Positions 1 to 56,879 of a stretch of DNA of 64,000 bases are shown piece after piece (the stretch's first letter is position 1; every line of letters starts with the position of its first letter). The DNA comes from Octopus sinensis (Eukaryota). The position numbers and the translations under genes are program-made. Where the stretch lies: positions 32,674,001 to 32,738,000 of the forward strand of contig NC_043005.1 in assembly GCF_006345805.1 (NCBI RefSeq). The letters are read 5' to 3'. The notes under the pieces are model-generated. The model was not told where the DNA came from, did no database searches, and worked only from the letters and a program-made list of their open reading frames with translations.

Positions 1-1638
1 TATCATCCATGAATTTATTCCATATATTTTTCTTCATTTGACTTCACTCACATTAACCTTTTAGGTTCTCTCACCTTTTATTTGTGTTTATGTGTATATT
101 TTATACTGTTGGGTGTTACTGTTGGGTGCCCTATTATCTAATATATAAATCCCGTTCTGTCTGTTTTTTTGTGCGCTTATAACTCGAGTATTGTTCATAC
201 AATTGTGCTGAAATTTTAAACATGGATACTTGAGAGAGCAAGGCGTTCCGTAATCTAAAACATTTTTCAAAATTGTCAGCTTCAAAGTGAGAATCGCTAT
301 TTTTGTAATCTTTTCGTTCTGCTTCTTTCACCATCCTGTTCATTAACCGGTGTTCTAAACAATTCATTTCTATGTTTTCACATTTAAATGACAGTTATAT
401 GTAACTAAAGCTTGCTATTTGTAAATACAGTCTTATTTTAATTTAAATATTATACCACAAACAACTGTATTCATTTCCGCATTTTCACATGTTTGTAAGC
501 AGCCAAACTCTTGATATCACTCTAACTTTAATTAACAGTAATCAATCACATGCATTCACAGTCAAATGTGTTCTTATGGCTGTTTTACATGCAATAAACC
601 AGCTGACATGAAAAACTGCTTGGAAAAGGCACTTAATTCAAGTGAGCAAAAAAGTGAAAATAAAGCAAATAAATAACTGGTGATGACTCAATTTTCTGAA
701 GATATTCTCAACAAAATTCAATTGAAAGTAGAAAAGACTAATTAATTACTAATGAAATGTGAAAAATTGGAGGGATTACATCTAAAATCTTGCCTCACAT
801 TTCTCATTCAACTTTAAAAAAATAAATGGTATTGTTCAATTTTTGAGATAAAATTGATTTGCAAAGTACATGCCTTATGCTATTTTATTGCACATTGTGT
901 TTTTTCACCTCTGAGTTTCAATTCTTTTTGTGTCAGTTTTTGAGAGAGGAGAGACTTCCCTAAGCATTTTTGCGCCTTTATTGAGTAACAGTTTCTACTT
1001 GCCTGTCCATCAGGTGATTAAAACTTCCATTTATATTTTTATTTGAAATTAATGTTACTTATCTCGTAATTCTTACCACTTTGACAGTGAAAATCGAAAT
1101 AAAATATGTGAAGCAACAGTTGTCAAATACAAAAGCCAAAGAACTGTTTATTACTTAAATATCACTTGCAATATTCACTTTGGAGATAAAACAGCATTCA
1201 GTCTGACATATAGGTGTTAACATGAGGTATTTACTATGGAAGAGTACATTGTGCTTATCCTAATATGAAAGTTTTTGAGTGTAAAAAGTTTTAGGTTAAT
1301 TATGATGTCCGATTCCAGTGGAAGTTGTATATATTGTGGGCTGAACAACTTTCCTTCATTTTATTGGCCTCATGACAAATTTGAAAAAGTTCAATCAGTT
1401 TTCCTTTTTTTAGAAGAAACAAGCAACAATGTTTCAAGAATCTTTAATGCCCTAACCAAAAGTAACAGCCCCATACAATCACCAAACATCTTCACAACGT
1501 TTCTTGACTTTTTACTTCCTCCCCTTTGGTTTTTTCCCCCTTATTTAATGGTCATTCTAATAGCTCTTTTGTCTTAATAACGGTCAATTACATAGTAATT
1601 TCCCTTTGTTTAACTGTCATTTTCATAGCATATTTTGA

Positions 1639-1709
1639 TTGCCTCCATAACTGAAGAGATGCCGAAGCAGGTTTCCACCGACATCTGAAACTCAGTCTTA
1701 CTATGGCAA
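1639..1709 (+). ncRNA. Type-I hammerhead ribozyme-like motif (variant with extra U before GAAA)
   Basis: CTGAAGA 1651-1657; stem II GATGCCG/CGACATC; T-GAAA 1686-1690; pseudo-palindromic stem III ACT-C-AGT; GTC cleavage triplet ending 1697; imperfect stem I ttgcc..ataa / ttac..ggcaa. Confidence 0.6.
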
Positions 1710-1739
1710 CCGAATAATTGTGTATTATGTATATGTATG

Positions 1740-1780
<41 letters not shown>

Positions 1781-1840
1781 GTGTGTGTGTATGTATGTGT
1801 ATACACACACACACATATATATATACATATCATATATATA

Positions 1841-1987
1841 TGTGGTAAGTAGCTTCTTTACCCACCACATGGTTCCGGGTTCAGTCCCACTGCATGGAAA
1901 CTTGTGCAAGTGTCTTCTACTATAGCCTCGGGCTAACCAAAGCCTTGTGAGTGGATTTGGTAGACAGAAACTGAAAGGAGACCGTCT

Positions 1988-2024
<37 letters not shown>

Positions 2025-2208
2025 TTGTGTTTGTCCCCTAGCATCACTTCACAACCGATACTTGTGTGTTTACAGTTCAGCAAAAGAGACCAATAGAATA
2101 AGTACTAGACTTACAAAGAATAAGTTTTGGGATCGATTTGCTCTACGAAAGGCGGTGCTCCAGCATGGCCACAGTCAAATTACTAAAACAAATAAAAGAC
2201 TAAAAGAA
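1841..2208 (+). mobile_element. tRNA-derived SINE family A (octopus-type, internal TA/TG microsatellite)
   Basis: tRNA-like head tgtggtaag..ccacatggttccgggttcagtccc, central gcaagtgtcttctactatagcc, tail cagtcaaat..aaaagaata; many homologous copies in window. Confidence 0.85.
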
Positions 2209-2230
2209 TATACGTGTGTGTGTGTATGTA

Positions 2231-2281
<51 letters not shown>

Positions 2282-2284
<3 letters not shown>

Positions 2285-2661
2285 AAAGTAACCACCATGT
2301 GGTCTACTCTCACACTAAAAATAGATCTGCTAGGTTTCAGCCACAAAAGAATTGTTTCCGATGAAAGTTAGCACGACTACTACCGCAAACGAACAGGGCA
2401 AATAAACATAACAAAAATGCAGATTAGTTCAGGACAATTGTTTCGCTATTAATAAATTATGTAATTTTACTCACATAACATATATCTGTAGCTCTTCAGC
2501 CGAACCCGTCCAGAATACAATTTACTCGACCGCACGCTAGATTTCACCATAACGATAAACACACGTTTATTGTAATCCGGGTTTTTTATGCACTAAGCCA
2601 CTTGGTGTTAAATGGATGTACTATTAAATTAGTATCCAATTTTCTCACCCTTATTAGTTGA
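2282..2661 (-). mobile_element. Penelope-like pseudo-LTR fragment carrying a hammerhead
   Basis: Non-coding unit bounded on both sides by (TA)n, contains the canonical hammerhead at 2426-2506, adjacent to a PLE RT. Confidence 0.6.
2426..2506 (-). ncRNA. Type-I hammerhead ribozyme, canonical core
   Basis: Minus strand reads GGTTCGG-CTGAAGA-GCTA-(40 nt loop)-TAGC-GAAA-CAATTG-TC-CTGAACT; 7-bp stem I, 4-bp stem II with G10.1-C11.1, palindromic CAATTG helix III, GUC cleavage between plus-strand 2433 and 2432. Confidence 0.85.
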
Positions 2662-2697
<36 letters not shown>

Positions 2698-2705
<8 letters not shown>

Positions 2706-3094
2706 TTATGTGTATATTTTATTTTATCCTTATAACCTGCATTTGCCAAGGCTATGTTGTATTGGTCCTTATGCTTGTTAAATATATCCTCATTCAGTGA
2801 CAGGTATGATAGTCTACTGTTGATAGTTTTAATTAAAGCATTTTTTATTGATGTTGGGTGATTACTTTGGGAGTGTATGTACTTAATATTGGAGTGAGGT
2901 TTTTTAATAGGTTCATGGAGTTCTGTTACTAAATTAACATTTGCATCTAAGAAGTTTATAGAATTATACCCTCTTTCAATGGTGATGGGAAATCCAAACC
3001 TTTTAAAATATTTATATAATTGTTTCTTAATTAGTTCCATGCGTCTATTAGAGACGGTTTTTACGATGAATAATGCATCATCTCTATACAAACC
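2698..3094 (-). mobile_element. Penelope-like element reverse transcriptase fragment
   Basis: ORF 2654..3091: YRDD catalytic motif, INFLD (RT domain 7) and YIHSQSNHP thumb motif typical of PLE RTs; truncated into (TA)n. Confidence 0.85.
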
Positions 3095-3100
3095 TTACTA

Positions 3101-3175
3101 CTTCTGAAAACATTCATCTTATAATTATTTTAATTTCATAAAAGATTTCTGAATCGAAACAGCTGTCAGAGATGT
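3101..3175 (+). ncRNA. Degenerate type-I hammerhead in an inverted pLTR of the Penelope fragment
   Basis: CTGAAAA (G8A) 3104-3110, stem II ATTCA/TGAAT, GAAA 3156-3159, palindrome CAGCTG, TC 3166-3167; the 5' arm of stem I is lost at the junction with the RT. Confidence 0.55.
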
Positions 3176-3278
3176 TGTCATATTTTATGATTAAAAAAGT
3201 AATTTTATTAATTGCTTCTCCATTTTTTCCTTATTCTTTAAATATATATTTATTTGTATGTATATATATATGTTCATA

Positions 3279-3316
<38 letters not shown>

Positions 3317-3342
3317 CTTTATTTAAAAGCAGCAGAAAATAT

Positions 3343-3395
3343 AACAAAAGCTGTCACTCAGAGTTTCATGTTCCCATTCATCTGACAGTTTTGTT
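3343..3395 (-). ncRNA. Degenerate minimal hammerhead (same family as 9657-9705)
   Basis: Minus: AACAAAA-CTGT-CAGATGA-ATG-GGAA-CAT-GAAA-CTC-T-GAG-TG-ACAG-C-TTTTGTT; U4A and GUG triplet suggest inactivation. Confidence 0.6.
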
Positions 3396-3676
3396 AAAAT
3401 AGAACTGAAATAACAATATGATCAAAACTAGTTAAAGGATACACCTTTAAAAATGGATTTATTTCATTGGTTCTTTCAATTAACGGTCTTAAGTATGCAA
3501 TGAACAAAATAAACAAAATAAATGAATTCAATAAATACTCATCCTATTATAAAAATCTATATATATATTCATTTATATATACATGTATATATGGGTACAG
3601 GATGTCACCAACTGTAAACAACGTGAAATACGAAACAAGGAAGTTTAAGTACACAAACGAGTTAAATACATAAACA

Positions 3677-4086
3677 GGGCTGTCTTATGAAGAAAGGCTG
3701 AAGACGCTTGACCGTTATTCTCTAGAAAAACGACGACGCCGTGGTGATCTCATTCTTGCTCACAACATCATAAGCGGAAAGTGTAACCTCTCGAAAGAGC
3801 TGTTCTTCCCTCCTGCTCCAGAGCGTCGGCTGCGGGGTCATTCCGAAAAGCTCTATCTGCGACGATTTCATCTCAATCGAAGGAGAGGGGCTTTTTCCGT
3901 CTGGGTTGCAGATCCGTGGAATAAGCAGCTAGACGAGATGGTGAAGATGCCGACGACCGCTCGGTTCAAAGTCTCCCTTGACCACAAGTGGCCTGAACTC
4001 TTTACATGAACACCACCCTGTACATAACTCCATGTCCCCCTACATGGCCTTGCTTTTTGAGCCAAAAAATTAACTAACTAACTAAC
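3677..4086 (+). mobile_element. CR1-clade LINE 3' end (young, 5'-truncated)
   Basis: Open frame 3677-4009 GLSYEERLKTLDRYSLEKRRRRGDLI...RGHSEKL...WNK...LD, typical CR1 ORF2 C-terminus; (TAAC)n tail; CpGs intact. Confidence 0.9.
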
Positions 4087-4090
4087 ATAT

Positions 4091-4147
<57 letters not shown>

Positions 4148-4169
4148 CACACACACACACATGTATATA

Positions 4170-4392
4170 TTTGTATGCTTGTGTCTCTGTTTGTCCCCTC
4201 CACCACCACCATTACTTGATAACTGATGTTGATGTGTTTACGTCCCCATAACTTAGCAGCTCAGCAAAAGAGACCAATAGAATAAATACTAGGCTTACAA
4301 AAAATAAGTCCTGGGGTCAAATTGTTCAACTAAATCTCCTTAAGGTGGTGCACCAGCATGGCCACGGTGAAATGACTGAAACAGGTAAAAGA
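4170..4392 (+). mobile_element. SINE family A, 3' half
   Basis: gtttacgtcccc..cagcaaaagagaccaatagaataaatact..cagcatggccac..aaatgactgaaac matches 2030-2200. Confidence 0.75.
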
Positions 4393-4648
4393 ACATGTGT
4401 GTGTGTGTGTGTGTGTGTTTTTGTTTGTTTCCCACCTGCCTTCGTCTTTTGTCTATTTTCATAAAGCTTCCCGTTATATATATATATATATATATATAGA
4501 AAGAGAGAGGGTAAAGTGGCAGTCCTGATTAGGATAGTGTTACTACCTTTTTTCAGCCCCAGGAAAACATCTTTTCCAGCTGGCTATCGGGACACAACTG
4601 CATCCTTATACCTCGAACAAGGGAGGTAATATTCCCACTCAGCCTTAT

Positions 4649-4694
4649 CCTGTGCCGATGAAGAGAAATAACCCAGAAACCATTGGTGTGTGGG
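4649..4694 (+). ncRNA. Hammerhead-like motif, tandem copy 1
   Basis: CCTGTG-CCGATGA-AGAG-AAATAA-CCCA-GAAA-CCA-T-TGG-TG-TGTGGG. Confidence 0.55.
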
Positions 4695-4967
4695 TACTGT
4701 TTAAGGCTGAGTAGAGACATTAGCTCCTTTACTTGAGGTATAAAGACACATTTTCCTGGGGCTAAAATTGCTAGTAACACCATCCTAATCAGAACTGTCA
4801 CTTTAATTTGGCAAATAGACTTTACTCTGTGGTACTGTTTCCACTGATTTCTTTCTCAGTGATTTAAAACTAATTGTTTTTCTCCTTATGTGATTAGTAA
4901 CTGTGTGTCACTTTAAAAGTATATACTCGAGCAAGGCTTAGAGTTGCTATTTCTAGCCAATGGTTAT

Positions 4968-5013
4968 CCTGTGTCGATGAAGGGAAATAACCCAGAAAGC
5001 ATTGGTCTGCAGG
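4968..5013 (+). ncRNA. Hammerhead-like motif, tandem copy 2
   Basis: CCTGTG-TCGATGA-AGGG-AAATAA-CCCA-GAAA-GCA-T-TGG-TC-TGCAGG; stem I CCTGTG/TGCAGG, GUC at 5005-5007. Confidence 0.6.
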
Positions 5014-5239
5014 TATTGTTTAAGGCTGAGTCAGAACATTACTTCCCTTGTTCGAGGTATAAGGATGCAATTGTGTGCTGAGAGCCGTTTGGAAAAGTGT
5101 TTTCTTGGAGCTAAAAAACGTACTAACAATATCTTAATCAGGACTGTCATTTTATGTTGGCAAATAGATTTTACTCTGTAGTACTGTTACTACTTACTTC
5201 TCGCTCAGAGATTTAAAACTAATTGTTTTTTTCCCTATA

Positions 5240-5295
5240 TCATCATCATCATCGTTGTTTATATCTGCTTTCCATGCTGACATGTGTCGAACGGA
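5240..5295 (-). mobile_element. RTE LINE 3' tail fragment
   Basis: catcatcatcg..tctgctttccatgctgacatg matches the 3' end of the RTE at 62320-62370. Confidence 0.6.
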
Positions 5296-5495
5296 TATAT
5301 ATAGATATATATATATATATTCATGTGTTTTGTTTGTCCCCCTTGATGCTTAATAATTGATGTTAGTTTGTTTACATTCCCTTAACTTAATGGTTCAGTA
5401 AAAGAGACCAGTGGAATAAGTGCCAGAATTGAAATAAGTACTGGAGTTGAATTGTTTGATGATAAATCTAACAGTACAATGACCCATTATTGTTG

Positions 5496-5529
<34 letters not shown>

Positions 5530-5885
5530 ATTGTAGAATCATTAGACTATCAAAGTACCTCACAGTACTTTAAGTTTTGAGATCATATCTTGCTACGGTT
5601 AATTTTGCTTTTCAATCCTCTAGCAAGTTCTGGTCTTTTAATCAATGCCACCCTCTTCCCTCTTCTGATCTTGTGGAAATTATAAGGATGATGGATTGGC
5701 AGAAAAGTTTGGGTCAGAAAATTCTCTTGTAGTATTTCTTGCAGCTTTTGATTTTGTGAGTCTAGTTCCAGCCACTGTCAACTTTCATCCTTTTAGGGTA
5801 CCAGTTGAACACTAAGGTTGATGTAATTCACTTGCCCCTCACCCCAAAATTGCTGGCCTTGTGTCAAAATTGAAAGCTATTATTA
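5530..5885 (+). mobile_element. SINE family B, two degenerate tandem copies
   Basis: tggcagaa..ttgagt..ctttcatcc..gatgtaat..gctggccttgtg with (att)n tails. Confidence 0.6.
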
Positions 5886-5889
5886 TTGT

Positions 5890-7175
5890 TTTTGTTTTTA
5901 TTTGCTAGTGCATGCTAATTTAGTTAGCAGGTATTTTATCATGAGATTTGTTGACAAGTCTCTTCAAATCTCGAGAATCTTTCTTAGGACTCTTACAGCA
6001 AGTTTCAATTCTAGTTTTCTTTCAGTCTTGTAGGTAGCAGTTTGATTGTTGTGTCAAGTGCACTAATTCCTACTGCAATAAATATTGTCTTGATCTTCTA
6101 CAGTCTCCTCAGTTCTCTGGCTAGATCTGGATATTTCTCAGTTTTTTTCTATTTCTTTGCTATCAACTCTGCTATCATAGGAAATTACAAAATCTATGAG
6201 TTTTCATTGTCTTCTATGATCATATCTGGCCTTCTGGCTTCAATAGTGTGGTTATTTTTTTAATGAGGAAATCCTGCAAGATCTTGTAACTCTCTTTTTC
6301 TGTCAGATACTCTGGTTTGTGTTCTTTATTGCTTTTAGGGTGGAGTGCATTGTGAGCAGTTCTTAGTTCTGTAGCTGAACCTTTGTTTTAGAATGGGAGC
6401 AGAGTATCTCTCTATGAGTATAGCCCATGTATTTATGGTTTCAACCCTTTCATTACCATATTTAATTTGAGATGCTCTGTGTTTCTTTCAATTACTTTGA
6501 ATATAACGAAGAATTTAGTAAAATAACTTATTTATCATTCAGTTAGTGTTAGGAACATAAATTGTAACTAAGGTTTGGTGGAAGATTTTAATTCAAAACT
6601 TATGAAAACAAGACATTTGTACTACAGAGCCAGAGCCGGATTCAGCTGGATTGGTAACAAAAGGGTTAATGGTGCTCCCACCATTTAATTTTGAGTGCCC
6701 TCTTAATTCTCTTGTACTTTCTCTCTCATTTCTTCTTCTGTTATCCTGTTGTTTTGCAGCACTCTTAAATATATGTACCACTCATTATTCCACAGAAATC
6801 AAATGATGTTGTCTTGTGGCAATGTTATGCCATCAGAGTTTACCTTCTGGCCTCTCTTCATAATTAGTACTGTGCATTTATTTACCTCAAACTGTATTCC
6901 AGTATCTTTACTCAGTGTTTGGATTGAAAAGTCCAAGTTTGTTTCATTTTTTTGTATACAACTTGAGGTCATCACCTATGGATGACCTCCATAAGTGATT
7001 TATTCTTATCTTGATTTTGGTAAACTCATAGGCAAGTCTGAATTTTCTCAGTATATTTGTCACGGGGATTTGTGTAATGACAAAGAGTAATGGAGAGAGT
7101 GAGTCTCCTTGGAAAATGTCCCTGTGTATTTTCGTGATACCTAACGATTCATTTGCACATGTCAGTTCTACTTGC
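5890..7175 (-). mobile_element. R4/Dong-like (RLE) non-LTR retrotransposon, degenerate, interrupted by a MITE
   Basis: Minus frames give IFQGDSLSPLLFVI, INHL..DDLKLY, GIQFEVNKC..MKRG..GITLP (RT) and KKTEKYPDLARELRRL (restriction-like endonuclease). Confidence 0.8.
6478..6669. mobile_element. Non-autonomous DNA transposon (TTAA-ended, piggyBac-like MITE), partial
   Basis: Ends ggtaacaaaagggTTAA; a related copy at 30302-30445 begins TTAAatcctttgttacc. Confidence 0.55.
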
Positions 7176-7347
7176 TTGATATTTCATATATGCATAACAA
7201 TTAAACTGTTGGAAAAGAATTCTTAACATCAGGCTACAACAGGTAATGTTAGATAGCAAGAATTTTCCTCAGTCTCCTAGCTGTCCCTAATTACATTTTT
7301 TTCTGGAGTTGTTGCTATTATTATTATGAGTTTTATTATTATTATTA

Positions 7348-7990
7348 TATGTTCTGAGTTCAAATGTCACTGAGGTTGACTTTGTCTTTCATCCTTTCAG
7401 GGTTGATAAATTAAGTACCAGTCAAGTACTGGGGTCGATATAATTGACTATCCCTCTCCCCTAAATTTCAGGCCTAGTACCCAAGGTAGAAAGGGTTGCT
7501 GTTATGATGATGATGATGAAAAAGGCAGCAAGCTGGTAGAACCGTTAGCAGGACATGCCTTTCATCCTTTTGGGGTCAATAAAATAAGTAGCAGTTGAGT
7601 ACTGAAGTTGGTATAACCAACTAACCCCGTACCCACATAGTTCAGGCCTTGCGCCTATAGTAGAAAGGATTATTATTATTATTGTTGTTATTTTGTTGCT
7701 TTTAGGTGAGCTGACACAACCATTAGCATGCTTAGAGGAATTTCTTCTAGCCGGTTAGATTCTGAGTTCTCATCCTGCTGTAGTCAGTTTCACCTTTCAT
7801 CCTTTTGGTGGTGGTGGTGGTGGTGTCAATAAAATAAAATATCAGTCCACAAACAATAATTATAACTAAGAGATTCATCATAAAATGAACTTTCAATTCA
7901 ATTTAAATAGTTATTTTTGATGCAATTGACTTATCCCCCACACCCTCAAATTTCTGGGCTTCTGCCAAAATTAGAAAGGATTATTATTAT
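7348..7990 (+). mobile_element. SINE family B, three tandem copies
   Basis: ttctgagttcaaat..gaggttgactttg..tttcatcctttc.ggg..gataaa..agtaccag..ggggtcgat repeated, (att)n tails. Confidence 0.85.
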
Positions 7991-8254
7991 TATCAGCATC
8001 ATTTCCCTATCTCATGTCAATGTTCTGCTCCTCACCCTAGTAACTCACTTTTTGTGTGTGTGTGTGCGTGAAATCATCCTGGGGTGAAAAGAGAGATGTA
8101 CAAGACAGCAGACAGTTTGTCTTCACTCTCTTTCTTATACACATACACATACACGTACACATTCTCCTGCATACATTCACGCATGTGCACACACACGCAC
8201 ACTTTCAAGCCATTTCAACAAGCCAAGCAGCAGCTCACTGCTCAGTCAGTCTGA

Positions 8255-8285
<31 letters not shown>

Positions 8286-8579
8286 ACTTATTATTTATCC
8301 TACTTCGCCACCACCCCTTCTCTCATCTCTCCCTCCCCTGAAGGCAAGTAGATAGAAAGAAGTCAGAAGATAAGACTTTTTTCTTTGGAGTTTTGGAGTA
8401 AAGCACTCAATTTTAACATTTACAGGACTCTTTGAGGGGATTCCTTCCTCCCCACTACTTAATCACTTCATTTAGTTTACTGTTAAATTAGAGGAAAAAA
8501 AAATCTTGCGGATGGGGAGGATGGAGGAGGAGGATTTTGAAATGTATTGGGCTTTCTTCTGTTTTTAGATTCCACATAA

Positions 8580-8646
8580 CTTATTCTCTGTGTGTGTATA
8601 CATATCTTACACTACACATATACACACACACACACACAGAGAATAA

Positions 8647-8689
<43 letters not shown>

Positions 8690-8757
8690 CGATGTATATA
8701 TACACACACACAGAGAATAAGTTTATATATATATATATATATATTGGTAAAACGGTA

Positions 8758-8802
<45 letters not shown>

Positions 8803-8838
8803 ATATATATACATACACACACACACACACAGAATAAG

Positions 8839-8885
<47 letters not shown>
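8580..8885. repeat. Compound (CA)n-GAATAAG-(TA)n minisatellite
   Basis: cacacaga(ga)ataag followed by (ta)n three times, plus an inverted copy at 8580. Confidence 0.7.
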
Positions 8886-8891
<6 letters not shown>

Positions 8892-9077
8892 AATTCTATT
8901 AGAGGTTATAAAAACTGTCTAGGGTATTTGTATCCAATGAATTACTGGTGTTTTACCTATATGTGATTATGTGTATTATCATTAATGCTCATAAATGATA
9001 GGTAAGGAAAGGAATAAACTGAACATATATATATATATATATATATAGTCCATGTCTGTAATTATTTTTACTGTTTA

Positions 9078-9130
<53 letters not shown>

Positions 9131-9131
9131 T

Positions 9132-9269
9132 AGGAGTGGCTGTGTGGTAAGTACCTTGCTTACCAACCACATCCTTCGGGGTTCAGTCCCACTGCATGGC
9201 ATCTTGGGTAAGTGTCTTCTACTGTAGCCTTGTGAGTGGATTTGAAAGATAGAAACTGAAAGAAGCCTG

Positions 9270-9309
<40 letters not shown>

Positions 9310-9500
9310 TTGTGTTTGTTCCCCCACCACCACCATCGCTTGACAACCGAATGCTGGTGTGTTTACATCCCCCGTAACTTATCAGTTTGGCAAAAGGGTT
9401 TAATAGAATAAGTACTAGACTTACGAAGAATAAGTCCTGGGGTTGATTTGTTTGTCTAAAGGTGGTACTGTAGTCAAATGACTGAAATGAGTAAAAGAGT
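9132..9500 (+). mobile_element. SINE family A, near full length
   Basis: gtggctgtgtggtaag..gggttcagtcccactgcatggc..gtcaaatgactgaaatgagtaaaagag. Confidence 0.85.
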
Positions 9501-9533
<33 letters not shown>

Positions 9534-9596
9534 GCAATAATAATTCTCTAAACGAGATTTAGACAAGCCACATTCAAATGGCTAATGTCCCTTATG

Positions 9597-9629
<33 letters not shown>

Positions 9630-9630
<1 letters not shown>

Positions 9631-9808
9631 TTTATTTAAAGCAGCAGAAAATTCAACAAAACCTGTTACTCTGAGTTTCCCGTTGCCGTTCATCGGACAG
9701 TTTTTGCTAGCAAATTTTCTGCTGCTTTAAATAAAGCATATTACTCTACCACTGGTATTTGAGTACTCTTTTTCCCACTTTGTTTCACATTTATGTGTTT
9801 ACTCCGGT
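9630..9808. mobile_element. PLE pLTR-like unit with a perfect 24-bp inverted repeat enclosing a hammerhead
   Basis: 9630-9653 is the exact reverse complement of 9713-9736; homologous to 3317-3395; flanked by (TA)n on both sides. Confidence 0.65.
9657..9705 (-). ncRNA. Minimal type-I hammerhead (U4C core variant, GUA site)
   Basis: Minus: AAAA-CTGT-CCGATGA-ACG-GCAA-CGG-GAAA-CTC-A-GAG-TA-ACAG-G-TTTT. Confidence 0.65.
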
Positions 9809-40151: not shown

Positions 40152-40783
40152 ATATACAGTTGAAGGCAGTTTCTAAAGTTACTTGTGGGACTGAACTCCA
40201 TTAAAAATAATTATTAATGTACCTTGAAAATGAAATGCACATATTCTAATGTCAACACACACATGTACACTGGTCCATTCATAATGGCACACATACTTTG
40301 AGATAAATGTAACCATATGTGCATAGTATCATTTTTACCATTCCAGAAAGCTGTCCCTATAACATCCAAAACCATTTCTTTGAAGTAACTAAAAGTCTTG
40401 GTAAAATATTGATTTCTTCAATTTTTTTAAAATTTATTTAATGGAAATTATAATTAGTTTCATTAACTTAGAATATTGTTTACACTTTTTGTTTTAATTA
40501 ACCTGAGGGGCAGTGGTCATAACTTTTGCATGCTCCCTTCAAAGCTGAGTTTTTTGTAAGAATATGACTTATTCTACAAATGATGCACTAACATGGCCAC
40601 AACTACTGGGTGAAACAGGTGAAGATTAAACCTTAAAAGGACATAAAATGTTTGACTTAATTTTTGATGACTTTTGAAAAAAAAATGTTTTTTGATGATG
40701 TTTTGGCTTTTTTGTACTTTTGCAAGTACTTTTATTTTGATAGTTTTTACTTATGTTTTTCTCTTGTTTTTGTGTACTTGCAG

Positions 40784-41053
40784 AATCTAGCAGCTCATCA
40801 AACTGGACCCCCCTCTATGGGGGAGCACGGTTAGACCAGGATACCATCCAGTACTTCCATAAATTCTACTGTAAAGATTGCCGTATGGAGAAACAAGCTG
40901 CTGAGCGTGCCAAAGCATCGTCAGTAGTGGGGGGAGAGAATGCACTTGGTGGGACATCACCAACAGCAGGATACACCAGTCAACAACCATCAAGTCCACA
41001 AAATTCTCTGGACGAACTCTCACTACAACAAGCCATGGATAAAAATAAAGAAT
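40784..41053 (+). CDS. Mrtf: MRTF coding exon 2 (N-terminal extension to MDKNKE)
   Basis: Long polypyrimidine tract + TTGCAG acceptor, AAT|GTAAGT donor, 270 nt, phase 1-1, open frame ending SLQQAMDKNKE as in invertebrate MRTFs. Confidence 0.9.
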
Positions 41054-41410
41054 GTAAGTAAATGCCGGAGCAAAAGTGGTTCTATTTGATTGTGGAAAGT
41101 AAATGTTTATTGTTGTTTCCTTTTTAACTCTTTGAATTCCAGAGCCTCTTCCATTATAGGTACTAAAAAAAGGGGGATTTATCTTCATCCATTACATTAA
41201 CATTGTTATTCAGTGGATGAGAGATAATCTCTCATCTACTGAATTCAAATTGACTTTCTGCTGTCTTACATGAAATATATGTCACCTTTGTTTAATGAAA
41301 ATTAACAATTTCAAGGGTATATTTATATATAGCCATAGAAATATTGCAAAAAGTTAGAGCAGCCCCTGACAAGTGCTCAGATAGCTTGGTTATATGTCTA
41401 TATATATACT

Positions 41411-41710
41411 GTACAATAACTGTATATAATCTATATCATAATGATATTTATTCTCCGATTTTGAAGCGACAATATTATTTGTGTAGTATTAAGACAGTTT
41501 AAGTATATATTAACTAAATTTGACTGAAATTGATGGGTGAGCGTTTGGCCAATCAGATTCGCAAGGAGCCATGAAAGCATCGATTTGTGGGTTCGATTCA
41601 GTCTGAGGTTAGCTCATCATTTTTTGGTCATTTGTTTATATTTAAAAATTGTCGCTTCAAAATCGGAGAATAAATATCACTATGATATATATTATATACA
41701 GTTATTGTAC
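41411..41710. mobile_element. MITE/foldback element with ~63-bp terminal inverted repeats
   Basis: gtacaataactgtatataat..gatatttattctccgattttgaagcgacaat mirrored at 41648-41710. Confidence 0.8.
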
Positions 41711-41820
41711 AATTATTATTCTATGAGCCTTCCATAGTAGCTTTCTCTCTGTAACTCGCAAAGCCTTTTGGGTTTGTTTATAAAAGTATTATTTATATAG
41801 TTGTATATATACATATATAT

Positions 41821-42114
41821 CACATCACCATCACATGACCGACCAGTCCATCAGATGTAGTTACACATCGCTGGTCACAATGCGTTTGCATTGTTTTAGC
41901 CTTCGAAAGATGCCACCCCGCTGGCTAAGCGAGCAGGCCAACAGAAGAAAGAGTGGTGAAAGAGTACAGCAGGGATCACCACCCCCTGCCGGAGCCTTGT
42001 GGAGCTTTTTAGGTGTTTTCGCTCAATAAACACTCACAACGCCCGGTCTGGGAATCGAAACCACGATCCTACGACCGCGAGTCCGCTGCCCTAACCACTA
42101 GGCCATTGCGCCTC

Positions 42115-42115
<1 letters not shown>
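41821..42115 (-). mobile_element. Young tRNA-derived SINE family D
   Basis: Minus head ggaggcgcaatggcctagtggttagggcagcggactcgcgg..ggtttcgattcccagaccgggcg with A and B boxes; CpGs intact; (gtgat)n tail. Confidence 0.85.
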
Positions 42116-42170
<55 letters not shown>

Positions 42171-44277
42171 AGCACACACATACACTTGACGTCTGAAAAT
42201 GACAGTATGAGTTTCCATTGAAGGAAAATATAGGGTATAGGGTCCAGTTAAACAAAATAATGGATCACATACAAACCGATAAAAAATGAAGTCCCTCTTC
42301 TCTGTCAAAGAAAAAGGCAGTGACTTAAGTTAGGCTACATATGTTGGTTTGAGTCTCAGATGTCTACAGCCTCAGCTCTACATGTTTATCCTGTCCCTGA
42401 CATCATTTTCCTTGAGCCAGATACTTAGATCTGTTTCCTGAACTTTAGTTAAACCTTTTTTTTTAAAGGTTCTTTATTATATATAGATTAGCAAAGACAT
42501 CTCTAAGTACAATTTCATAAATTGTATTAGTTTATAGAGAAAAGGAGATGAGATTGAATCATGTCTATATTTCTGTCTCAGTGATATTGCTGAATCAGTG
42601 AATTAGTTGTAACTGGGCATCAAGTTTGCCTTGTTAATTTGGTTTGCCAGGAGCTGATGGTAGTAGCAGCAGCATTAGTAATTTATTACGTAAGCTCAGT
42701 TCACATTTTTAGGTGAGAGAAAGAAAGGAATATTGGAACAGATGTAATAGTTTTACTATTTCTAAGTGAAATGGTTTTAAGTTGAAGGTGAAGTCAGGTG
42801 AGAGTTATTGCGAAGTTAGGATAACCATTAAAATAATAATATTCAACTCTAGCAGCAATATAAGGAATAGAAATATTGCTGTATTACTGAAGATAGTTTA
42901 AAGTGTGTAGTGGGAAGAATTAAACTTCCAAAGTAAGTATAATTTTTCTCTTTATTTTCTATTGAATTTCACTGATTCCTATAAATTTGTACAATTTATT
43001 TTCTGCTTTTTTAATTTTAATATTGACTCACAAAGGCAGATTTATATTAATACAGATATATTAATAAAGCAATCACTTGACATGTTTCATTACTTATAAC
43101 TCTAATCTACAAGTATTTAAAAGTTAGGAAGAAAGGGGGAGGGTTTTTTTTTGGCATCATGCAAAATTTTTAAAAAGTATTCTTTCAATAGTTTTTTTTT
43201 CTTTCTTTTTTGTTTTGTTATTTATAATTCAGTTCTCAGTTACCATTTTTAGTTTCTGCTAGAAATCTCACTCACTTTCTTCTGTCTTGTGGATAGGACT
43301 TGCATCATGAAATATGGCATTGTCAGAATTTAGTTGTTGCATGTTTGCAGTTTGGTTTAAAATAAAATTATAAAGGACCAGTATAACCAGTTAGTATTTT
43401 TGACTGCTGTAGTCTGGCTGTGGTAAATTTTGTTATATCTCTCTATTAACAGCTCACTTCTCTTCCATCCATCCTCTCTCTTGAAATATTCTTTGGCAGG
43501 TTATGAACAAACAACTGAATTCCTCGTTATCCCTAACTTGTCTTACTGCATTAGCATTTCACATTGCATATATTTTGCATCTAACAATTTGGCTGGCTAT
43601 GCTTACTGCCCCGCCCCACCCTCTTTCTGTAGACCAGAAATAGCAACAAATATGAACATTTGGAATTATTCTCTTATTTTTCTTTTTTCTCCTTTCAATT
43701 ATTATTATTATTATTATTGCTATTTATAGCATTAGGGGAGTGGGGATGATGTAGATAGATTAAAGCTGGACTAAAACCATTTTGGTTAACAAGTCTGGTG
43801 CCTCATCTTTCTGCATCATCCCTTCAGTGTCAAAAATTTTTTATTTAGAATCACTTTAATCAGCAAATGCCTTGTGTGTGTGTGTGTGTGTATGTTTATA
43901 TATAGTGTGTATTTTGTGTGTATTTGTATATATATATATGTGTATTTGTATATATGTATATGCATATATATCTATCTATCTCTCTATCTATAATGTGATA
44001 GAAAATTCAACCAAAAAAGTACTCCATCAGATGAGAAATAAATATTATATATACATGTTTGTGTGTGTCTGTATGGTTGATTTGCTGCAACCTCTAGTCT
44101 TTCCAGATTCTCTTTTAGACAATTTACTCAAAAAAACCAAATGCACCATTTACTGTAGGTATGAATGTAAATTTACAATCTGGATATAAATGTTGAGGGT
44201 TTTGAAGCAGTTGTCTATAGTTATTGTCTTCCTCAGTAATTGTGTGCATTCATGTCTTTGCAAACATATGTGTGCGT

Positions 44278-44310
<33 letters not shown>

Positions 44311-45377
44311 AAAAACACATATTGAATAGAGGGAATGAATACTGAACATTGCATTCTCTCTCTGTGACTTTACCATGCTACCATTGGTTTCATGTAATAC
44401 ATTACTATTATCAACTGTTTCACTTGAAAATGTTTGTAATTCATCTCCACTTTGGATAAAGCTATGAAGCCTTATCCAAGCTAGAGATGAATTATCTACG
44501 TTTTTTAAATGGAATAAGTAAATAAATAAATATATAAATTGCGTATGTATTTAAATATAGGTATATACATATTGTATTTAAAGAAAATATGTACTTTTGC
44601 TGTATTTTGTCAACCTGATAGCTAAATGTTTATATTCCCAAATCTTTAATGTTAATATAGTATGTGATAGATAAATCTAGCTGAAAATCTTAATCAATCA
44701 CCATTGTTAATGCTTTTTCTATCTAACAGACACAAAGTTTCTTGCCCTTTCAACTCCTGTTTTAGCTTTATGTATTTAATAGAGGCATCTGTGTGGGTTA
44801 GTAGAAATGATGTAGATCACGGAACATCAGAGTGTTTAAAGACAGTTGTCTTGGTTCTGTGTTCAAATCACATATTTCTTGAAGTAACCTCTCTCTGATC
44901 TCTCAGCCTGCTAAAAATAACAGTAAAATCACTTTTGAATCAGTACTTACTGTCTTAAATGAACATATTGGCTTATGTAGTCCAAACTACACTGTCTAGA
45001 AAAACGGAAAAGACAGGATAGTCACAGTGGGAATAATCTTAAATTTGCTTAATCAGCCAACTTGGGGGCTAAATAACAACTTCATCTCTCATTCATCTGG
45101 AGTCAATATAAAATGAGATTCAATTGATTGTATCTCTCATGCTCAAAAATTGGCCATGTATCTATCTAGTTAGTAGATTTCATTAATTATATTTTCCATC
45201 TTTTTTTTTTTTTTGGCAAGGAATTAGGAGTAAAGTTAAATTCTACCATTTATCATTCAAAAAGTTGTTCCTTGTTAACAAAATCAGTCCAACTCAGATG
45301 GTCTCCATCTTTGATTACTAGCAACAGTGGTTCTTCTTTTTTTTTTTTTCAAAATACCTTCCCTGTTTTTGTTCCAG

Positions 45378-45491
45378 GTGGTCTCTTGTCAAATCAGTTT
45401 AATGGGGCACTGTTGCACAATGAAGAGATGCCAGACTCACAAATGACTTTACTCCAAACTGCCCCAGCAACTAGGTTTGATGCCACAACAG
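45378..45491 (+). CDS. Candidate MRTF alternative exon (114 nt cassette, or terminal exon to stop 45532)
   Basis: ccctgtttttgttccAG acceptor, CAG|GTGAAC donor, phase 1-1, open in the MRTF frame. Confidence 0.45.
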
Positions 45492-46281
45492 GTGAACTTT
45501 TCATTGCCCCTACCCATCAACCAACATTCTGAGAATGCCTCTCTCTTATAGACTCCTCCATTAACTTTCATTTCTTCTGCCTCTTGTCCAAACAACTTAA
45601 CCAGGTCCACTCACTCGCTGCGCTGATGAGATGGGGATGACGGGAGGAAAACTACTGAATAACATTACAGTGAAACAATTGACATTATTATTGCTATCTA
45701 AATATATTATTATTATTATTATTAGTAGTAGTAGTAGTACTGTTTGCATTATTAATATTTAGAATTCTGGATTACTGAAACTTTTATCTACTTAAAAGCA
45801 AAGAGTTTATTAATAAAGCTATTAACCAACTCAAGTGGATTTCCAAATTGTCTAAGTTGGCATAGGTTTGTTCCAGTTCTAAGAAAAGCTTTTAGTTTAA
45901 TGTAGATACCCACCCCACCTCTACACCCATCGTATTTGGCTTCATTTCAATAAATTTGGGAGTTAAAAATTAGAGAAAAGAAAGTCAATTCTAAAATTAT
46001 GTTTTGGAATGTGATATTGTAAATTACTTTGAGAACTATAATTATTTAGTTTGCAGACTTTAGTGAAGGTTGATATTGTCTGGGAAGTAGGGTGAAGATG
46101 GAATGGCAGAATTAAGAGGAGACCATAGTAGAGTCATACATAATTTTAATGCAAACATTTTAATATTTAAAAAAAATGTTTTGTATATCTTTTGATGGAA
46201 GTGTTTCATCATAGATGGCCATCATAGCATGAAATGACCAGAAAACATACATAGTATAATAGTAGTAATGTTAGGCAATAC

Positions 46282-46312
<31 letters not shown>

Positions 46313-48823
46313 TGGAAGGAAAGACTTTGGCTTAGAACTAAGAAAAGACTTCCGTTAATAGTTACACAACTTCAGTATCTAGGTAAGATGGACACAACCT
46401 TGATGTAGAAGTGTGTCTTTGTGTATGGAAGAGAGAGAGAGAGAAGTATGGTTTGATATTTGTTTAAAATACTAGGCTATTTTCTGGTGAATACTGGAGT
46501 ATCAGTGGACTAGGTAGAAGGTGGCCAATTCCTTGTGGTCTTTAGTTAACAACAGCTGCTAAACTAATTGTATTGTCAAGAACATTGTGAATTTATTAAA
46601 GTTGTGGAAGAGGAATTATCTAATGAGAGATGTGTGAGAATTGACTGCTGGCAATAAACTAGTGTATACTGTGAGAAAACAAATTGAGTTAGCTGCAGCA
46701 GCATTAGAGAGTGAGCTAGAAGGGTATCTGGAGAAAGACAAAATGGGTTGTCAAGAAAAAATGTTATGATGAGGTTATAGATCTAATAAGGTTTTACACT
46801 GTTCCCTAGAATTCAGATTTGTGAATCTTTTTAACAAATAGGCAAAAAACAAAATAAAATATGAATCAAAGCAAATTCTTCAACTTCTGGAGAACCTGTT
46901 CTGATGATACTCAGTCTTCAGGCCTAAAGATTTTGATAGACCACCAGCATTAAAAGAGTCCAACCTAAGTCTGGCATTTATATAAGTCATTATTACAAAT
47001 ATTCACTGTGTCAGAAAGTACATGAGAGTTGTAGATGTATACAAGGGAACTGACAACTCTTACGTATTCTTGTATCAGTCAGGATAATGATGCAGTTGGG
47101 AGAAAAGTCCGTTAGGTGGGGATCCAATAGTTGGTACCCACAGCTGTGTTTAGACCCAAGAAAATCTTTGGCATTAATCTCTCCTTTGAACTAAACACAA
47201 ATATGTATTTACTCTGTTAAAACCAACTTCAGCAAATATAGTCTTACTTCAAAAACAAACTGGCTTTAAATCTGTGTAAAAGAATTGTAAATTATTTACA
47301 TCTATAAAGGGAACAGGGAACTTCGGGGAGGGGGGACACACAGAAAAGTGAATAGTAAGGAACTTACATTTCTGAGTTTAAATTTGACCAGGATTGATGA
47401 ATGTCAACAAGATTTTTAGGTGGTATCTGTACTTGGGGGCAGGAAAATCACATGGCTATAACATTAGTGCTGATGTGTATAGGACTATCTATTAAAGGGC
47501 AGTGGAATAGGCTGAGACATAATTTGATTTTTTTTCTTTAGAGTCTAATAATTCTGTGAATGTGAAGTAACCACGTGGCTAAGCCCACACCATTCTGGTT
47601 CGTGTCTGGCCAGAGTTGACTTTCTATTTATCATTTTAGGACTGATAGAATATATATCATAATGGTAGATTGTAATGGCTATATTCACACAGCTCTGACA
47701 AGATTAATTAGCTTACTATTGCTGCTGCTACTGCTGCTACTACTACTACTAATACTAATACTATTACTGTTTTTAATTGTTACTGTCATCATTTATTCAT
47801 TTAACTATATAGGGACCTGTGGCAGATGTTGCTTTTTTATTCCAACTCCAAACTAATAATGATCAGATATGTTGTGGTGTCTAACCTCTAAGCTTTCTTT
47901 TTCACTCTCTGTCTCTTTCTTTTTTTTTTTTTTCTCAAATATTTTAAGCATCTCCTCATGCCAGTATATACGTTTATAATATATACATTATATGGAGATA
48001 TAATGGACATATAATATAACTCTTTGCTTCTTATAAAAAGCCACACATCTACACCTTTACTAGTAGCTGCTTATTTTCCTTTTGAAGCTTTTTCTTTTTA
48101 TTTAAATTTTTTTTTTCCTTACCTTTACTCAAAGCTGTTCCTTTTAATCTGAATTAAAGGGATTTTTTTCATTGTTGCTTAACTCTATTTCCCTTCTGTT
48201 ATCTTTGCTTTACAGTTCTTGACTTTTTCTCTCTTGCTTTTCCTCTTCTTTGGTGACTTCTAAGCAACTGACTCCTTTCTATTTTTTTTACTGGGTTATA
48301 TTGTTTTTTTTCTTCCCTATTTTCTTTTTGTTTTCTAGTTTTTACTTTTCTTTGTTTTGTATTTTGCTTATTAATGTTTACTTTTTTTCCTTTATCTATT
48401 TTTACTTAATTCTGTTATTTTATGTTTATTTTATCTGTGTGGGGATTTGGGTATTAAGGTAGGGGGTGAGGGTTGGTTACTTCTAGCCTGGAAGACACTT
48501 TATTTATTTACACCTGGGACATTTGGGTATATGTTACAGCTGAGAGATACACCTGTGTAAAATTAATGGGTGAAGGGCATAACTGGAATATGGGGTACAG
48601 CTGGAGTTATAAGCATTGCTTATGTAATGTACAGTTAATGAAGATATCACCCTTATATAAGTTACACCTTGGGTAGTACACACACACACTTGTGGGCAGT
48701 TTTCTTTCAATATCTTGCCAGTATTTCTTCTTTTATTAATCCTTAATGAGTGAACTATCTACTCTCACATATGTATGTATTTACAGCTGGATGGGGACAG
48801 ACACGTACACATGCGCGTGTGCG

Positions 48824-48862
<39 letters not shown>

Positions 48863-50745: not shown

Positions 50746-51003
50746 ATTGATTTCAAATTTTGGCTCAAGGCCAGCAATTTCAGAGGAGTGGGTAAGTCAA
50801 TTACATCGACCCCACTGCTTAACTGATACTTATTTTATCAACCCTGAAAGGATCAAAGAGAAAGTTCAGCTCAGTGGAATGTGAATTCAAGACATCCAGC
50901 TGTAGAAACTCTGCCAGATCATATTGGAGCCTGGTGCAGCCATCTGGCTCGCCAGTCCTTAGTCAAACCGTCCAATCCATGCCACCATGGAAAGCGGACA
51001 TTA
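50746..51003. mobile_element. SINE family B (-, 50746-50890) abutting an RTE-type 3' tail (+, 50893-51003)
   Basis: Family B core; catccagctgtagaaac..tccaatccatgcc.catggaaagcggacatt. Confidence 0.75.
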
Positions 51004-52065
51004 GAAAGCTTAGAAAACTTAGCAAAACACCCAGAATGGATTTGATCTGAGAAAGTTGTTGTAACCCTTTCATTGTTGTATGTCAAACAAATATAGACTG
51101 TTTGAAAGTTTCAAAAGAATTCATGTTTAGAATAAGATTATGAAATTTAATTTTTTTTTTTTGAAAAAAAAAAAAAAGAAGCTTTTGATATTGTGTGTTT
51201 GTGTGCAGACAGTTATGTGTATGTGTGTACACATCTTTGTCCATCATTGAATGTATGTTTATGTATGTTGATTATTAAATGCTGTTTATCAACAAATACA
51301 CTCCAGTTATAAAATTACAGGATTGTTAAACTCATTAACTACATGAAAAAAAAAAAAAGTAGTTTTAAAGACTTTCCTCTAGATTTTGATTAACCTCCTG
51401 AGAATTGATGCATAAACATGTTATTAATTTGTAAGCTTGTCCTTACTACTTGAAAAACACCCCTGTGTGTGTGTGTGGTATTTATCCTCAAGAGTTCTTT
51501 CAGAAAAAACGTGTGCCAGTGTTGAAAAGTTTAGTGCTTATTGGTGAAAGAAATTCAGTGAAATGTTTTGATTCTTAGTAGAAACAACTTTCATATTTTT
51601 CATATTATTATTAATGGATTTACAAGTACCACAACTTCCCAGTCTTCTTGCATACATTGAAGGCTCTGAAAATGTGTGTTTGTGTGCATGTATAATGCAC
51701 ATGTTAAATGCAGGTGTAGATAAACATGCAAACAGGCTTATCATCTAATATTATATTCAATTTTGAATTATGACCTATGTCCCTGTATTCTCTTGTTCCA
51801 CAGTCTTTCTCATGATTTTTCTCTACCACCGTATGCTGTATTTTATTGAGTCAAACATGTGTTTGTATATTTGTGTATCCTCCAAGAAAACCACTGACAG
51901 GAATATTATTGTCTGTTTGCATGTTTTACAAATATTTCTATCATGATTGGTTTTCTTGCCTTTCTTCCATCTCACACACATGTGTTTGTTTGTGTGTGTG
52001 TGTTGTATGTTTATGTGTGTGTGATAAGCACAAGCATGTGTATAGACACTAGCATGATCATAAGA

Positions 52066-54082: not shown

Positions 54083-56194
54083 TTCATTATCATCAAAAAC
54101 AGAAGTGGGAAATCTTTGTACGCTGTAACACCATGTTGTTCTTAATTGCCATTTGACAAGAAAAAAAAAATTCCTGCAAATTATTTTATCAGTTATTATT
54201 CTTAAAACTTTGACAAAGTGTACTTTTAACTATGACTTTGTTTTTGCCATTGCATAGCATGCTTGACTATAAAAATGCCAATAGTCACCCTTGAAGAAGC
54301 ATACATGGTAACACAGCAATGTGTGTGCTAAGTCACAGTTCATTTTACATTTTCTAAACATAATTACAAGTATAGATAAAGAAATATAAATAGATGTATC
54401 AAAAATCCCATTAGTTCAAAGGATAAACTTTTAATGTAATTAAATCAACAAAAATATACTCTGTAAAAGAGTAAAGAGTAAAGAGTAGTATAATGAGTTT
54501 TCACTCAAAATGTATTTCTTTGAGAAGGCTGCTAGTTTTCTACTTCTGATTTCAAATCATAGCAATATAGAAATGAATTAATTTAAACATTATCTAAAAT
54601 CATGGCAATTTGAAAATTAGAAATGGATATAAAATCATGGTTTCATAATACTAAAACTGTGATGAGAACTTCCTTGTATTGGAAAGACATATTGAGTGCT
54701 TAGGGAGGGAAGTAACTCCAAATATCAATGGACTTAAACTATGGATGACTTTTCCAGCTGAAGCTATCACACACATGCACGCATGCGCGCGCGCGAGAAT
54801 AGAGATAAAAACTGTCAAGTAGGCACACATGCATATTGGCAGCTATATGTAGTGCTAGGGAGGAAAGAGGAATAAAGGCCAGATAGAGAAAGAAAGAAAG
54901 GAAGATGCAAAGATGAAAGAAAAGGGAAGAAAGGAAAAACAAAGGAGAATAATAAGAGAGAAAGAGATGTAGGGAGTGGGGTAGAAGATAGAAGTCATTC
55001 TCCAGCCATGAACATGTTAGTGCACAAACAAGTTGCTAAAAACACACACACACACAGTTGCTAACAACTAACTAGCACAGAAGGAAGATAAAGGATGAAA
55101 GCATGCCACATGAAGAATTACCAATACATGTGTATTTATGCTTTTTTTAGTGTGTATGTGTGTGTGCATCACATGCATACGTATAAAACTAAATGTTATA
55201 ATAGTGTTTTTATTATAAAGTATTTTTAAGAACAACATCAAAACAATTACTGATGGTCTGATTCTTTAATGAGAGTAGAATCACATTTGTTGGGAAAACC
55301 ATGTTTACTGGAGCTTCACTCTTCTCTTTCTCTCTCTCTCTCTCTCTCCCGTCTGTGTGGATGTCTGTCTGTCTCTTTCTCTCTCTCTCTCTCTCTATCT
55401 AGTGTAGATTAAAATAAAAAATGAAAAAGCAAAACCTTTGACATCACTTGAAAAAAAAACATTTGATTTAAATAGAGAGTATAAACATATAGCCTCTTAC
55501 AGCTGTTTCTAGAATAACCAAACATGTGGATCAGGGTATTGAGTAAGGATTCCATAAGCTGAGTAATCTGTCATCAGAATGGGAGAAGTTAGAGAAATTT
55601 AAAAATAAAGAAATATCCAATCAAGGATATTATATTCCAGTTTGTCAAAAGTGAAGGATGAATCAGAGTAAAATGGGTATGTGTTTTGCTGTTCCATGAT
55701 ATGCTGTTCCATAATTAAATTGTAGGTAAGGTCCATTAGCAGTTTCAAACAAGAATGTTCAATGATAATCCATAGCAAAGAATAGAGGAAGTTACCAGTT
55801 TCATTTTTGAATGGAGTGTGAATGAGGGGTTAAGTAGGAAGAATATACTATAGTGTGGAGGAAGACAGACTGATAGATGTACTAATGTAGATATATACTT
55901 GTCGAGAGCATAGTTGGGGTATGCTTGTCTAAGCATACCAAAAACGTCTGATGCCAAATGTTTTGCTTTTTCAATTTTTCAATTTAATCTATATCTGCCT
56001 GCTCGAGAAGAAACCACTTCAAGCCACCTTCAATAAGCAGTCTCAACATTACACTTTTCAATTGCATTTGAAACTGGAGCTTTAGTGGTATACCAAACTG
56101 AGCACTTATAAGTACTTACCTATTTCATAACATCAGTTGTTGAAAACCTCTTGCATATTCTGTGTGTAATTCCAAGCCAACCACTGCCCTGTGA

Positions 56195-56813: not shown

Positions 56814-56879
56814 CATTGAAGCGCAAGTTGATGCTTCGGCGATCTGTTACTGAACTGGTTGACCGAGGCATTTATCCAC
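56814..56879 (+). CDS. Mrtf: MRTF coding exon containing RPEL1 (SLKRKLMLRRSVTELVDRGIYP)
   Basis: Strong acceptor ttttttctttcAG, donor CAC|GTAAGT, 66 nt, phase 1-1; RRxxxEL RPEL1 signature. Confidence 0.95.

Follow-up and report, generated by a model that had tools for sequence, protein, structure and literature searches.

We analysed a 64,000-nt stretch of the 2.72-Gb genome of Octopus sinensis (contig NC_043005.1, positions 32,674,001 to 32,738,000 of the forward strand; hereafter the window), in which seven motifs of hammerhead-ribozyme form lie in the first 10 kb and an MRTF gene follows. An initial annotation had read them as minimal hammerheads from about five families, clustered upstream of MRTF. 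On a direct check of the sequence all seven were present at the positions and on the strands reported, and they fall into five repeat families, A (H1), B (H2), C (H4 and H7), D (H3) and E (H5 and H6); throughout, H1 to H8 denote hammerhead motifs, A to F repeat families, and C3 the core cytosine of position 3 (Table 1). An eighth hammerhead, H8, belongs to a sixth family, F, and lies at 55,490-55,585 on the minus strand, contrary to the earlier statement that there was none in 10-64 kb. Each of the seven motifs in the cluster is very probably the 3' end of a dispersed repeat, from five families that are likely Penelope-like elements (PLEs) of the Hydra clade together with derivatives that lack an open reading frame (ORF); self-cleavage is predicted for dimers only, and four of the seven copies are broken.

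The gene was identified as MRTF by its three RPEL repeats and by an exon with basic, Q-rich and SAP-like stretches. As read from the sequence, the exon whose end is at 41,053 is spliced in phase with the first RPEL exon (56,814-56,879); RPEL2 and RPEL3 score above the Pfam cut-off at window-equivalent 73.2 and 76.6 kb, and a 961-amino-acid (aa) frame at window-equivalent 88-91 kb carries the basic, Q-rich and SAP-like stretches, parts of which we take to be the B1 and SAP motifs. The identity of the gene thus stands, whereas the placement of the cluster upstream of it is inferred.

Table 1. Hammerhead motifs, insertions and gene parts, in window positions
Feature	Position	Strand	Remarks
3' end of family A (Hydra-type PLE), carrying hammerhead H1	1501..1721 (H1 1639-1709; C3 at 1651)	+	then (TA)n
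Family B insertion with intact hammerhead H2	2285..2661 (H2 2426-2506; C3 at 2499)	-	(TA)n both sides
PLE reverse-transcriptase fragment, YRDD to thumb	2705..3094	-	head to head with family D
Family D 3' end with broken hammerhead H3	3093..3235 (H3 3101-3175)	+	G8>A, G10.1>C
Family C older subfamily 3' end with broken H4	3316..3508 (H4 3343-3395)	-	A at 4, G at 17
Family E insertion, made of an inverted piece (4511-4647) followed by tandem units that carry H5 and H6	4511..5229	+
H5 and H6	H5 4649-4694 (C3 at 4655; G at 17); H6 4968-5013 (C3 position 4974 = U)	+	family E
Family C young subfamily hairpin insertion with H7	9625..9808 (H7 9657-9705; C3 at 9696)	-	inverted tail; (TA)n both sides
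Family F insertion in MRTF intron with H8	55405..56163 (H8 55,490-55,585; C3 at 55,577)	-	inverted piece 55,949-56,163
MRTF coding exon	40781..41053 (start approximate)	+	GT donor, in phase with next exon
MRTF RPEL1 exon	56814..56879	+	PF02755 E=4e-4, under Pfam cut-off

Core, helices and detection of the motifs

Genome searches turned up many members of each family; scoring was confined to the top 40 candidates of a search, and 30 loci were retrieved from each. Core and palindrome were then tallied in regex-parsed copies from outside the window, which had been picked by likeness to the window copy. The commonest forms of families A, B and D have the core boxes CUGANGA, GAAA and UH in order, and those of C and E have them too, except for a C at core position 4. 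Intact core and palindrome occurred together in 23 of 36 parsed copies of A, 23 of 28 of B, 20 of 25 of C, 17 of 25 of D and 10 of 35 of E. Family D has a 6-bp helix II, a 6-nt palindrome and just 2 bp of helix I beside the core. The form of family F was taken from an alignment (its regex tallies held false matches and were unused), and in all six families, A to F, the commonest helix III inserts are palindromic.

Within the window, H2 and H7 alone match the intact form of their family, H7 being identical to the commonest form of family C with its C at core position 4. H1 retains the core boxes; its palindrome has gone from 7 to 5 nt yet is still palindromic, and its helix I is weakened. H3, H4 and H5 depart from family form at the positions given in Table 1, and H6 has a U3 facing G8 and a palindrome mismatch. 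To judge from these changes at the core or cleavage site, H3 to H6 are likely dead as ribozymes. The minimal motif form claimed for all seven therefore holds for H2 and H7 and, in weakened form, for H1, and because four of the seven copies are broken the cluster consists mostly of relics. In H8 the core and palindrome are intact, and helix I is decayed in the window copy.

Stem covariation was assessed in an alignment of eight sequences comprising H2, four close copies and three distant relatives of family B. Six of the 14 pairs are altered on both sides (five of seven in helix I, one of four in helix II) and 98% of the cells are paired, a level reached by none of 500 shuffles, while slid controls were 27-40% paired; the alignment is small, however, and the shuffle test is inflated because its members are related. 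Several of the pair changes are not CpG decay. Helices I and II are thus supported in the B lineage. A distant relative of B (L144:2773-2860) has lost the two central bases of its palindrome, which is still palindromic, as in H1 of the window. Cofolding predicted palindrome-paired dimers for H2 and H7, with binding of -8.6 and -11.0 kcal/mol, and the predicted cut in H2 falls between 2433 and 2432.

C in place of U at core position 4 was found in 19 of 25 parsed copies of family C and 25 of 35 of family E, and an older C subfamily carries the canonical U4 core. The U4C change is reported to lower activity in vitro yet to permit viroid infectivity (PMC3088659). Hydra-clade PLEs differ from C and E in this respect, with U at core position 4 in every Hydra row of File S2 (PMC8557442). 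A third family with C at this position was seen at L289:1930(+) and at window-equivalent 255.7 kb.

Profiles built from the non-window copies of each family recovered all seven motifs (E values of 3e-13 to 2e-27). A profile search of 474 kb returned these seven and one partial A copy elsewhere, and the reversed control gave no match. A strict hammerhead descriptor was passed by H2 alone in the window and by nothing in 30 shuffles. A bulge-tolerant descriptor, drawn up after the families had been seen, was passed by H1, H2 and H7, that is, three times in 1-10 kb, and by nothing in 100 shuffles. An Rfam scan of the window gave 130 matches at E<=10, none of them to a hammerhead family; minimal PLE hammerhead motifs were defined with separate descriptors.

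We also applied the bulge-tolerant descriptor to a genome sample of 60 fixed-position 10-kb stretches (600 kb). It gave 13 matches, most of which were not checked as repeat families. Among the controls, reversed sequence gave no match, 12 shuffled versions averaged 0.42 matches, and five decoy cores gave 0-2 each. The palindrome ends in C...G, a feature that the descriptor does not demand, in 11 of the 13 sample matches and in none of five shuffled matches. A 34-nt pattern for the intact core of young family C had 1,542 exact matches in the genome, and the reversed pattern had none. It is possible, although we regard it as doubtful, that minimal hammerheads of PLE type number in the tens of thousands in this genome (roughly 30,000-100,000 if the sample is typical), including ORF-less PLE-retrozyme intermediates of 320-510 nt and three or more families in which a weakened C4 core has been spread.

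Insertion anatomy and coding partners of the families

The insertions share a common anatomy of divergent inverted pairs with fixed 3' ends, an inverted 5'-truncated copy, a one-sided tail and (TA)n flanks. Copy pairs on opposite strands are nearly all divergent, with their 3' ends outward (all rows listed but two). The family B insertion of the window, for example, is made up of a sense piece 2566->2285 and an inverted tail piece 2566-2661, and one (TA)n tract is common to the family C copy with H4 and the family D copy with H3. Pieces of family B mostly terminate at unit position ~164 or ~268. The same inversion, tail and target anatomy has been described for PLE insertions, with tails of 30-40 nt versus ~65-105 nt here (PMC8557442).

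The reverse-transcriptase (RT) fragment of the window is 57% identical to an intact Hydra-type ORF of 960 aa (locus L181), and 150 relatives of it were scored in the genome, a number of them with frames of 960 aa. The intact relatives L181, L182 and L186 carry DKT, an RWK-like motif (RWR or KWK), CxCx5C, CxxC and CxH, and the marks given for the Hydra clade are DKT and RWK-type RT motifs, a CxCx5C linker and a C-terminal endonuclease (EN) with CxxC/CxH (PMC8557442). A minimal hammerhead lies upstream of the open frame, 270-520 nt away, in two of nine long PLE loci (L186 and L187). Family A has a Hydra-type EN 0.7-1.0 kb upstream, in sense, at four of 29 other loci (L100, L117, L118 and L120), and family F a Hydra-type RT upstream in sense at one of 19 (L331). 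Taken together, the Hydra-type coding remnants, the insertion anatomy and the covariation support the proposal that the genome hosts several unrelated PLE- or retrozyme-type families with minimal type-I hammerheads of the dimer type.

Two contigs hold near-identical intact 960-aa Hydra-type frames (L181:3249-6128 and L182:3193-6072) whose linker is long and Asn-rich, which suggests recent PLE activity; the descriptor used on the long PLE loci detected no hammerhead beside either frame. An inverted pair of Hydra-type EN fragments was also seen at window-equivalent 131.0-131.8 kb, downstream of MRTF.

Families B and E are made of repeated units that lack an ORF. The unit of B measures 507 nt, with a longest stop-free frame of 65 aa, and its copies are 93-97% identical. 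That of E measures 319 nt in the window (4689-5007), with a longest stop-free frame of 73 aa; H5 and H6 lie one such unit apart, and tandem spacing across loci is 307-383 nt. By inspection the motifs of both are PLE-type minimal forms, and both families appear to be non-autonomous derivatives of PLEs that resemble retrozymes. Contigs from runs only guessed to be RNA cover parts of the stretch. In a single contig of one such run, X1, the inverted repeat of the family E insertion (4713-4793) has eight A>G differences, five of which are missing from the large run X18; they could reflect A-to-I editing of a plus-strand hairpin, an allele or a paralogue.

We also compared the 5' ends of copies with the predicted cut sites. 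For family E, six of 66 ends (77 pieces parsed) fell within -6..+5 of the predicted cut (3.1 expected, P=0.085), and with 8 and 6 ends in the neighbouring bins a pile-up at the cut site is not supported. For family B, a hand count gave ~31 distinct long pieces that cross the tail junction, five of which extend into the final 20 nt ahead of the upstream site. Four of these five longest pieces stop at about -10, -5, 0 and +11 (P=0.007, with the interval chosen afterwards); two of the four begin 5' of the cut, and one piece runs through. The 5' ends of family C are confounded by helix I microhomology.

These features can be accommodated in a single scheme. The element RNA would be transcribed as a tandem, in which two hammerheads would pair through the palindromic helix III and cut slowly. 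A Hydra-type RT/EN would then prime at (TA)n and copy the RNA, always beginning at a fixed 3' end; an inverted copy would arise by template switching, beside the 5'-truncated copy and the tail. Because many copies run across the 3' hammerhead, the 3' site would usually be uncut or re-ligated in the template. The (TA)n on both flanks of each insertion may keep targets available and so seed a local cluster in microsatellite-rich DNA, where inserted copies would afterwards decay neutrally.

Several results limit this reading. Loose descriptors were at chance level (14 matches against a shuffled mean of 7.7 and maximum of 13); the by-eye motifs are therefore not judgeable singly, and the case rests on the families. 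Cofolded dimers were also predicted for some of the broken copies and hence do not discriminate. None of 59 family C loci and none of 29 family E loci matched PLE proteins, the single match for family B (L084) is low-complexity sequence, and family D is tied to an RT by adjacency in the window copy alone. Pfam finds nothing relevant in the PLE ORFs, and the assignment to the Hydra clade, which we consider likely, draws on motifs and a by-eye match to a published alignment. The dependence on (TA)n is weak as well: matches and (TA)n across the 60 sample loci were weakly correlated (rho 0.19, p 0.16), and (TA)n-rich bins without matches exist in the 210 kb upstream of the window.

Local density, the MRTF gene and alternative explanations

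The three bulge-tolerant matches of the cluster lie in 8 kb where 0.18 are expected (Poisson P=8e-4, a value to be read with the fact that the window was picked because the cluster was already visible there), and none of the 60 sample loci holds more than two. Insertions of one of families A to E near copies of another numbered ~12 in 615 kb of partly overlapping loci (a hand count from 19 rows minus duplicates and F rows), compared with four in the 600-kb sample; A-E insertions thus tend mildly to cluster. Tracts of (TA)8+ number 19 in 1-10 kb against a mean of 5.8 per 10 kb, whereas in 16-64 kb every 4 kb has 0-3 of them. Locally the cluster is a genuine hot spot, set in (TA)n-rich DNA.

Other repeats lie nearby. 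Between the C and E insertions, at 3674-4085, we found the 3' end of an ORF resembling that of a long interspersed nuclear element, presumably CR1-like, with a short-repeat tail and no Pfam match. The segments 1840-2200, 4170-4460 and 9130-9500 are copies of a very abundant repeat resembling a short interspersed nuclear element, with up to 83 matches in the 600-kb sample, which often stands beside the same (TA)n tracts. Another small cluster is found at window-equivalent 196.7 and 197.4 kb, where two intact-looking hammerheads of different families lie 700 nt apart, one of them matching the motif upstream of the L187 ORF.

The initial annotation had further proposed that PLE or retrozyme hammerheads may be kept out of the MRTF pre-mRNA, since cleavage there would be harmful. 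Indeed, no sense-strand copy of families A-F was found in 10-98 kb, the one intronic copy (family F, in intron 41,054-56,813) is antisense, and a preprint on Xenopus reports a modest intergenic enrichment of retrozymes (10.64898/2026.07.22.740005). However, only 0.6-0.9 intact sense copies are expected over the MRTF gene, so that finding none has a probability of P(0)=0.39-0.54, and the 210 kb upstream of the window are equally empty, with no descriptor match and no A-E match. The same preprint places 42-44% of retrozyme copies in introns, and minimal hammerheads showed no monomer cleavage and low dimer cleavage (PMC4209133), so that isolated copies would be nearly harmless. We therefore consider selective exclusion unlikely, and the claim does not survive the intronic F copy and these expectations. 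A low background density and a small number of (TA)n targets, rather than selection, likely account for the scarcity of hammerheads in the MRTF introns. One further descriptor match lies at window-equivalent 111.8 kb, past the last MRTF exon seen, and the MRTF intron also contains a degenerate 66-nt tandem repeat of 4.6 copies (52785-53092). For MRTF itself, the cluster most likely means nothing.

We also considered whether families C, D and E might be DNA elements resembling miniature inverted-repeat transposable elements (MITEs), with a chance or vestigial hammerhead-like centre. H5 and H7 are surrounded by long inverted repeats, helix II has just 2-3 bp in C and E, the core-proximal helix I of D has just 2 bp, and C and E both deviate at core position 4 and lack a detected coding partner. 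Against this, arm lengths vary from copy to copy while the outer 3' ends are fixed and the tail is one-sided, which is the anatomy of PLE inversion; moreover, family E occurs in tandem at 307-383 nt spacing, and the older C subfamily has the canonical core. This explanation is accordingly very unlikely, and for C and E the MITE reading was rejected on account of the variable arm lengths. Finally, co-option of the cluster by the host, for instance to end or process upstream transcripts heading toward the MRTF promoter, would fit its density well above background but is extremely improbable, given that four of the seven copies are broken, that the strands are mixed (four plus, three minus), that the two intact copies come from different young families with differing palindromes, and that the window was selected for showing the cluster.

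Relation to described elements

The PLE-type elements of the window are a real cluster of mostly decayed new examples of an already described element type. They resemble most closely the EN-bearing PLEs of the Hydra clade, which include Hydra-1_Obim of Octopus bimaculoides (Craig et al. 2021, PMC8557442) and share with the intact relatives found here the DKT motif, the CxCx5C linker and the C-terminal EN. In both, insertions have (TA)n targets and inverted 5'-truncated copies, and in the 3' hammerhead helix III is palindromic, whether odd or even, and helix II is flanked by spare bases. The Hydra-clade hammerhead sequences listed in that paper differ from those of our families, B and E have no ORF, and the intact ORFs found here are longer (open frames of 748-960 aa).

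The motifs also agree with the minimal hammerheads of metazoan PLEs (Cervera and de la Pena 2014, PMC4209133), which are likewise type-I and dimer-dependent and occur as thousands of mostly single copies, with several families per genome and opposite-strand pairs 100-700 bp apart; that minimal motif has little or no helix III insert, compared with 6-7 nt here. Short palindromic helices III and cleavage as dimers are shared with the small PLE hammerhead variants of Lunse, Weinberg and Breaker (2016), as reported in a review (PMC6765202). Non-LTR retrozymes (Cervera and de la Pena 2020, PMC7229834; Li et al. 10.64898/2026.07.22.740005) consist of ORF-less tandem units that are a few hundred nt long and each bear a single type-I hammerhead; a non-autonomous origin from PLEs has been proposed for them. 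This description fits B (507 nt) and E (319-383 nt), whose units are within the described range of ~150-1000 nt. Classical retrozymes, however, have canonical hammerheads with loop 1-loop 2 contacts and efficient cleavage, long arrays and expressed circles, whereas B and E have PLE-type minimal motifs, were seen only as ~1-2.5 units and keep the PLE marks of inversion and tail. A literature search whose coverage did not extend to Lunse et al. 2016 and the bioRxiv supplements found no survey of cephalopod hammerheads.

What is known of this kind of element is unchanged by the finding. Worth following are the cores with C4, the units that lack an ORF and bear PLE marks, and the load across the genome, which appears high. 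Having many young families, some of them ORF-less or with a non-standard core, provides material for tests of dimer cleavage and circle formation, and also of whether retrozymes outside vertebrates originated from PLEs. What hammerheads do in EN-bearing PLEs is stated to be unclear (PMC8557442). If a deliberately slow ribozyme favours transposition, in that an uncut 3' hammerhead keeps the end at which the RT primes while the upstream one sets the 5' limit, then the young families B and C would provide a direct test of what the PLE hammerhead is for.

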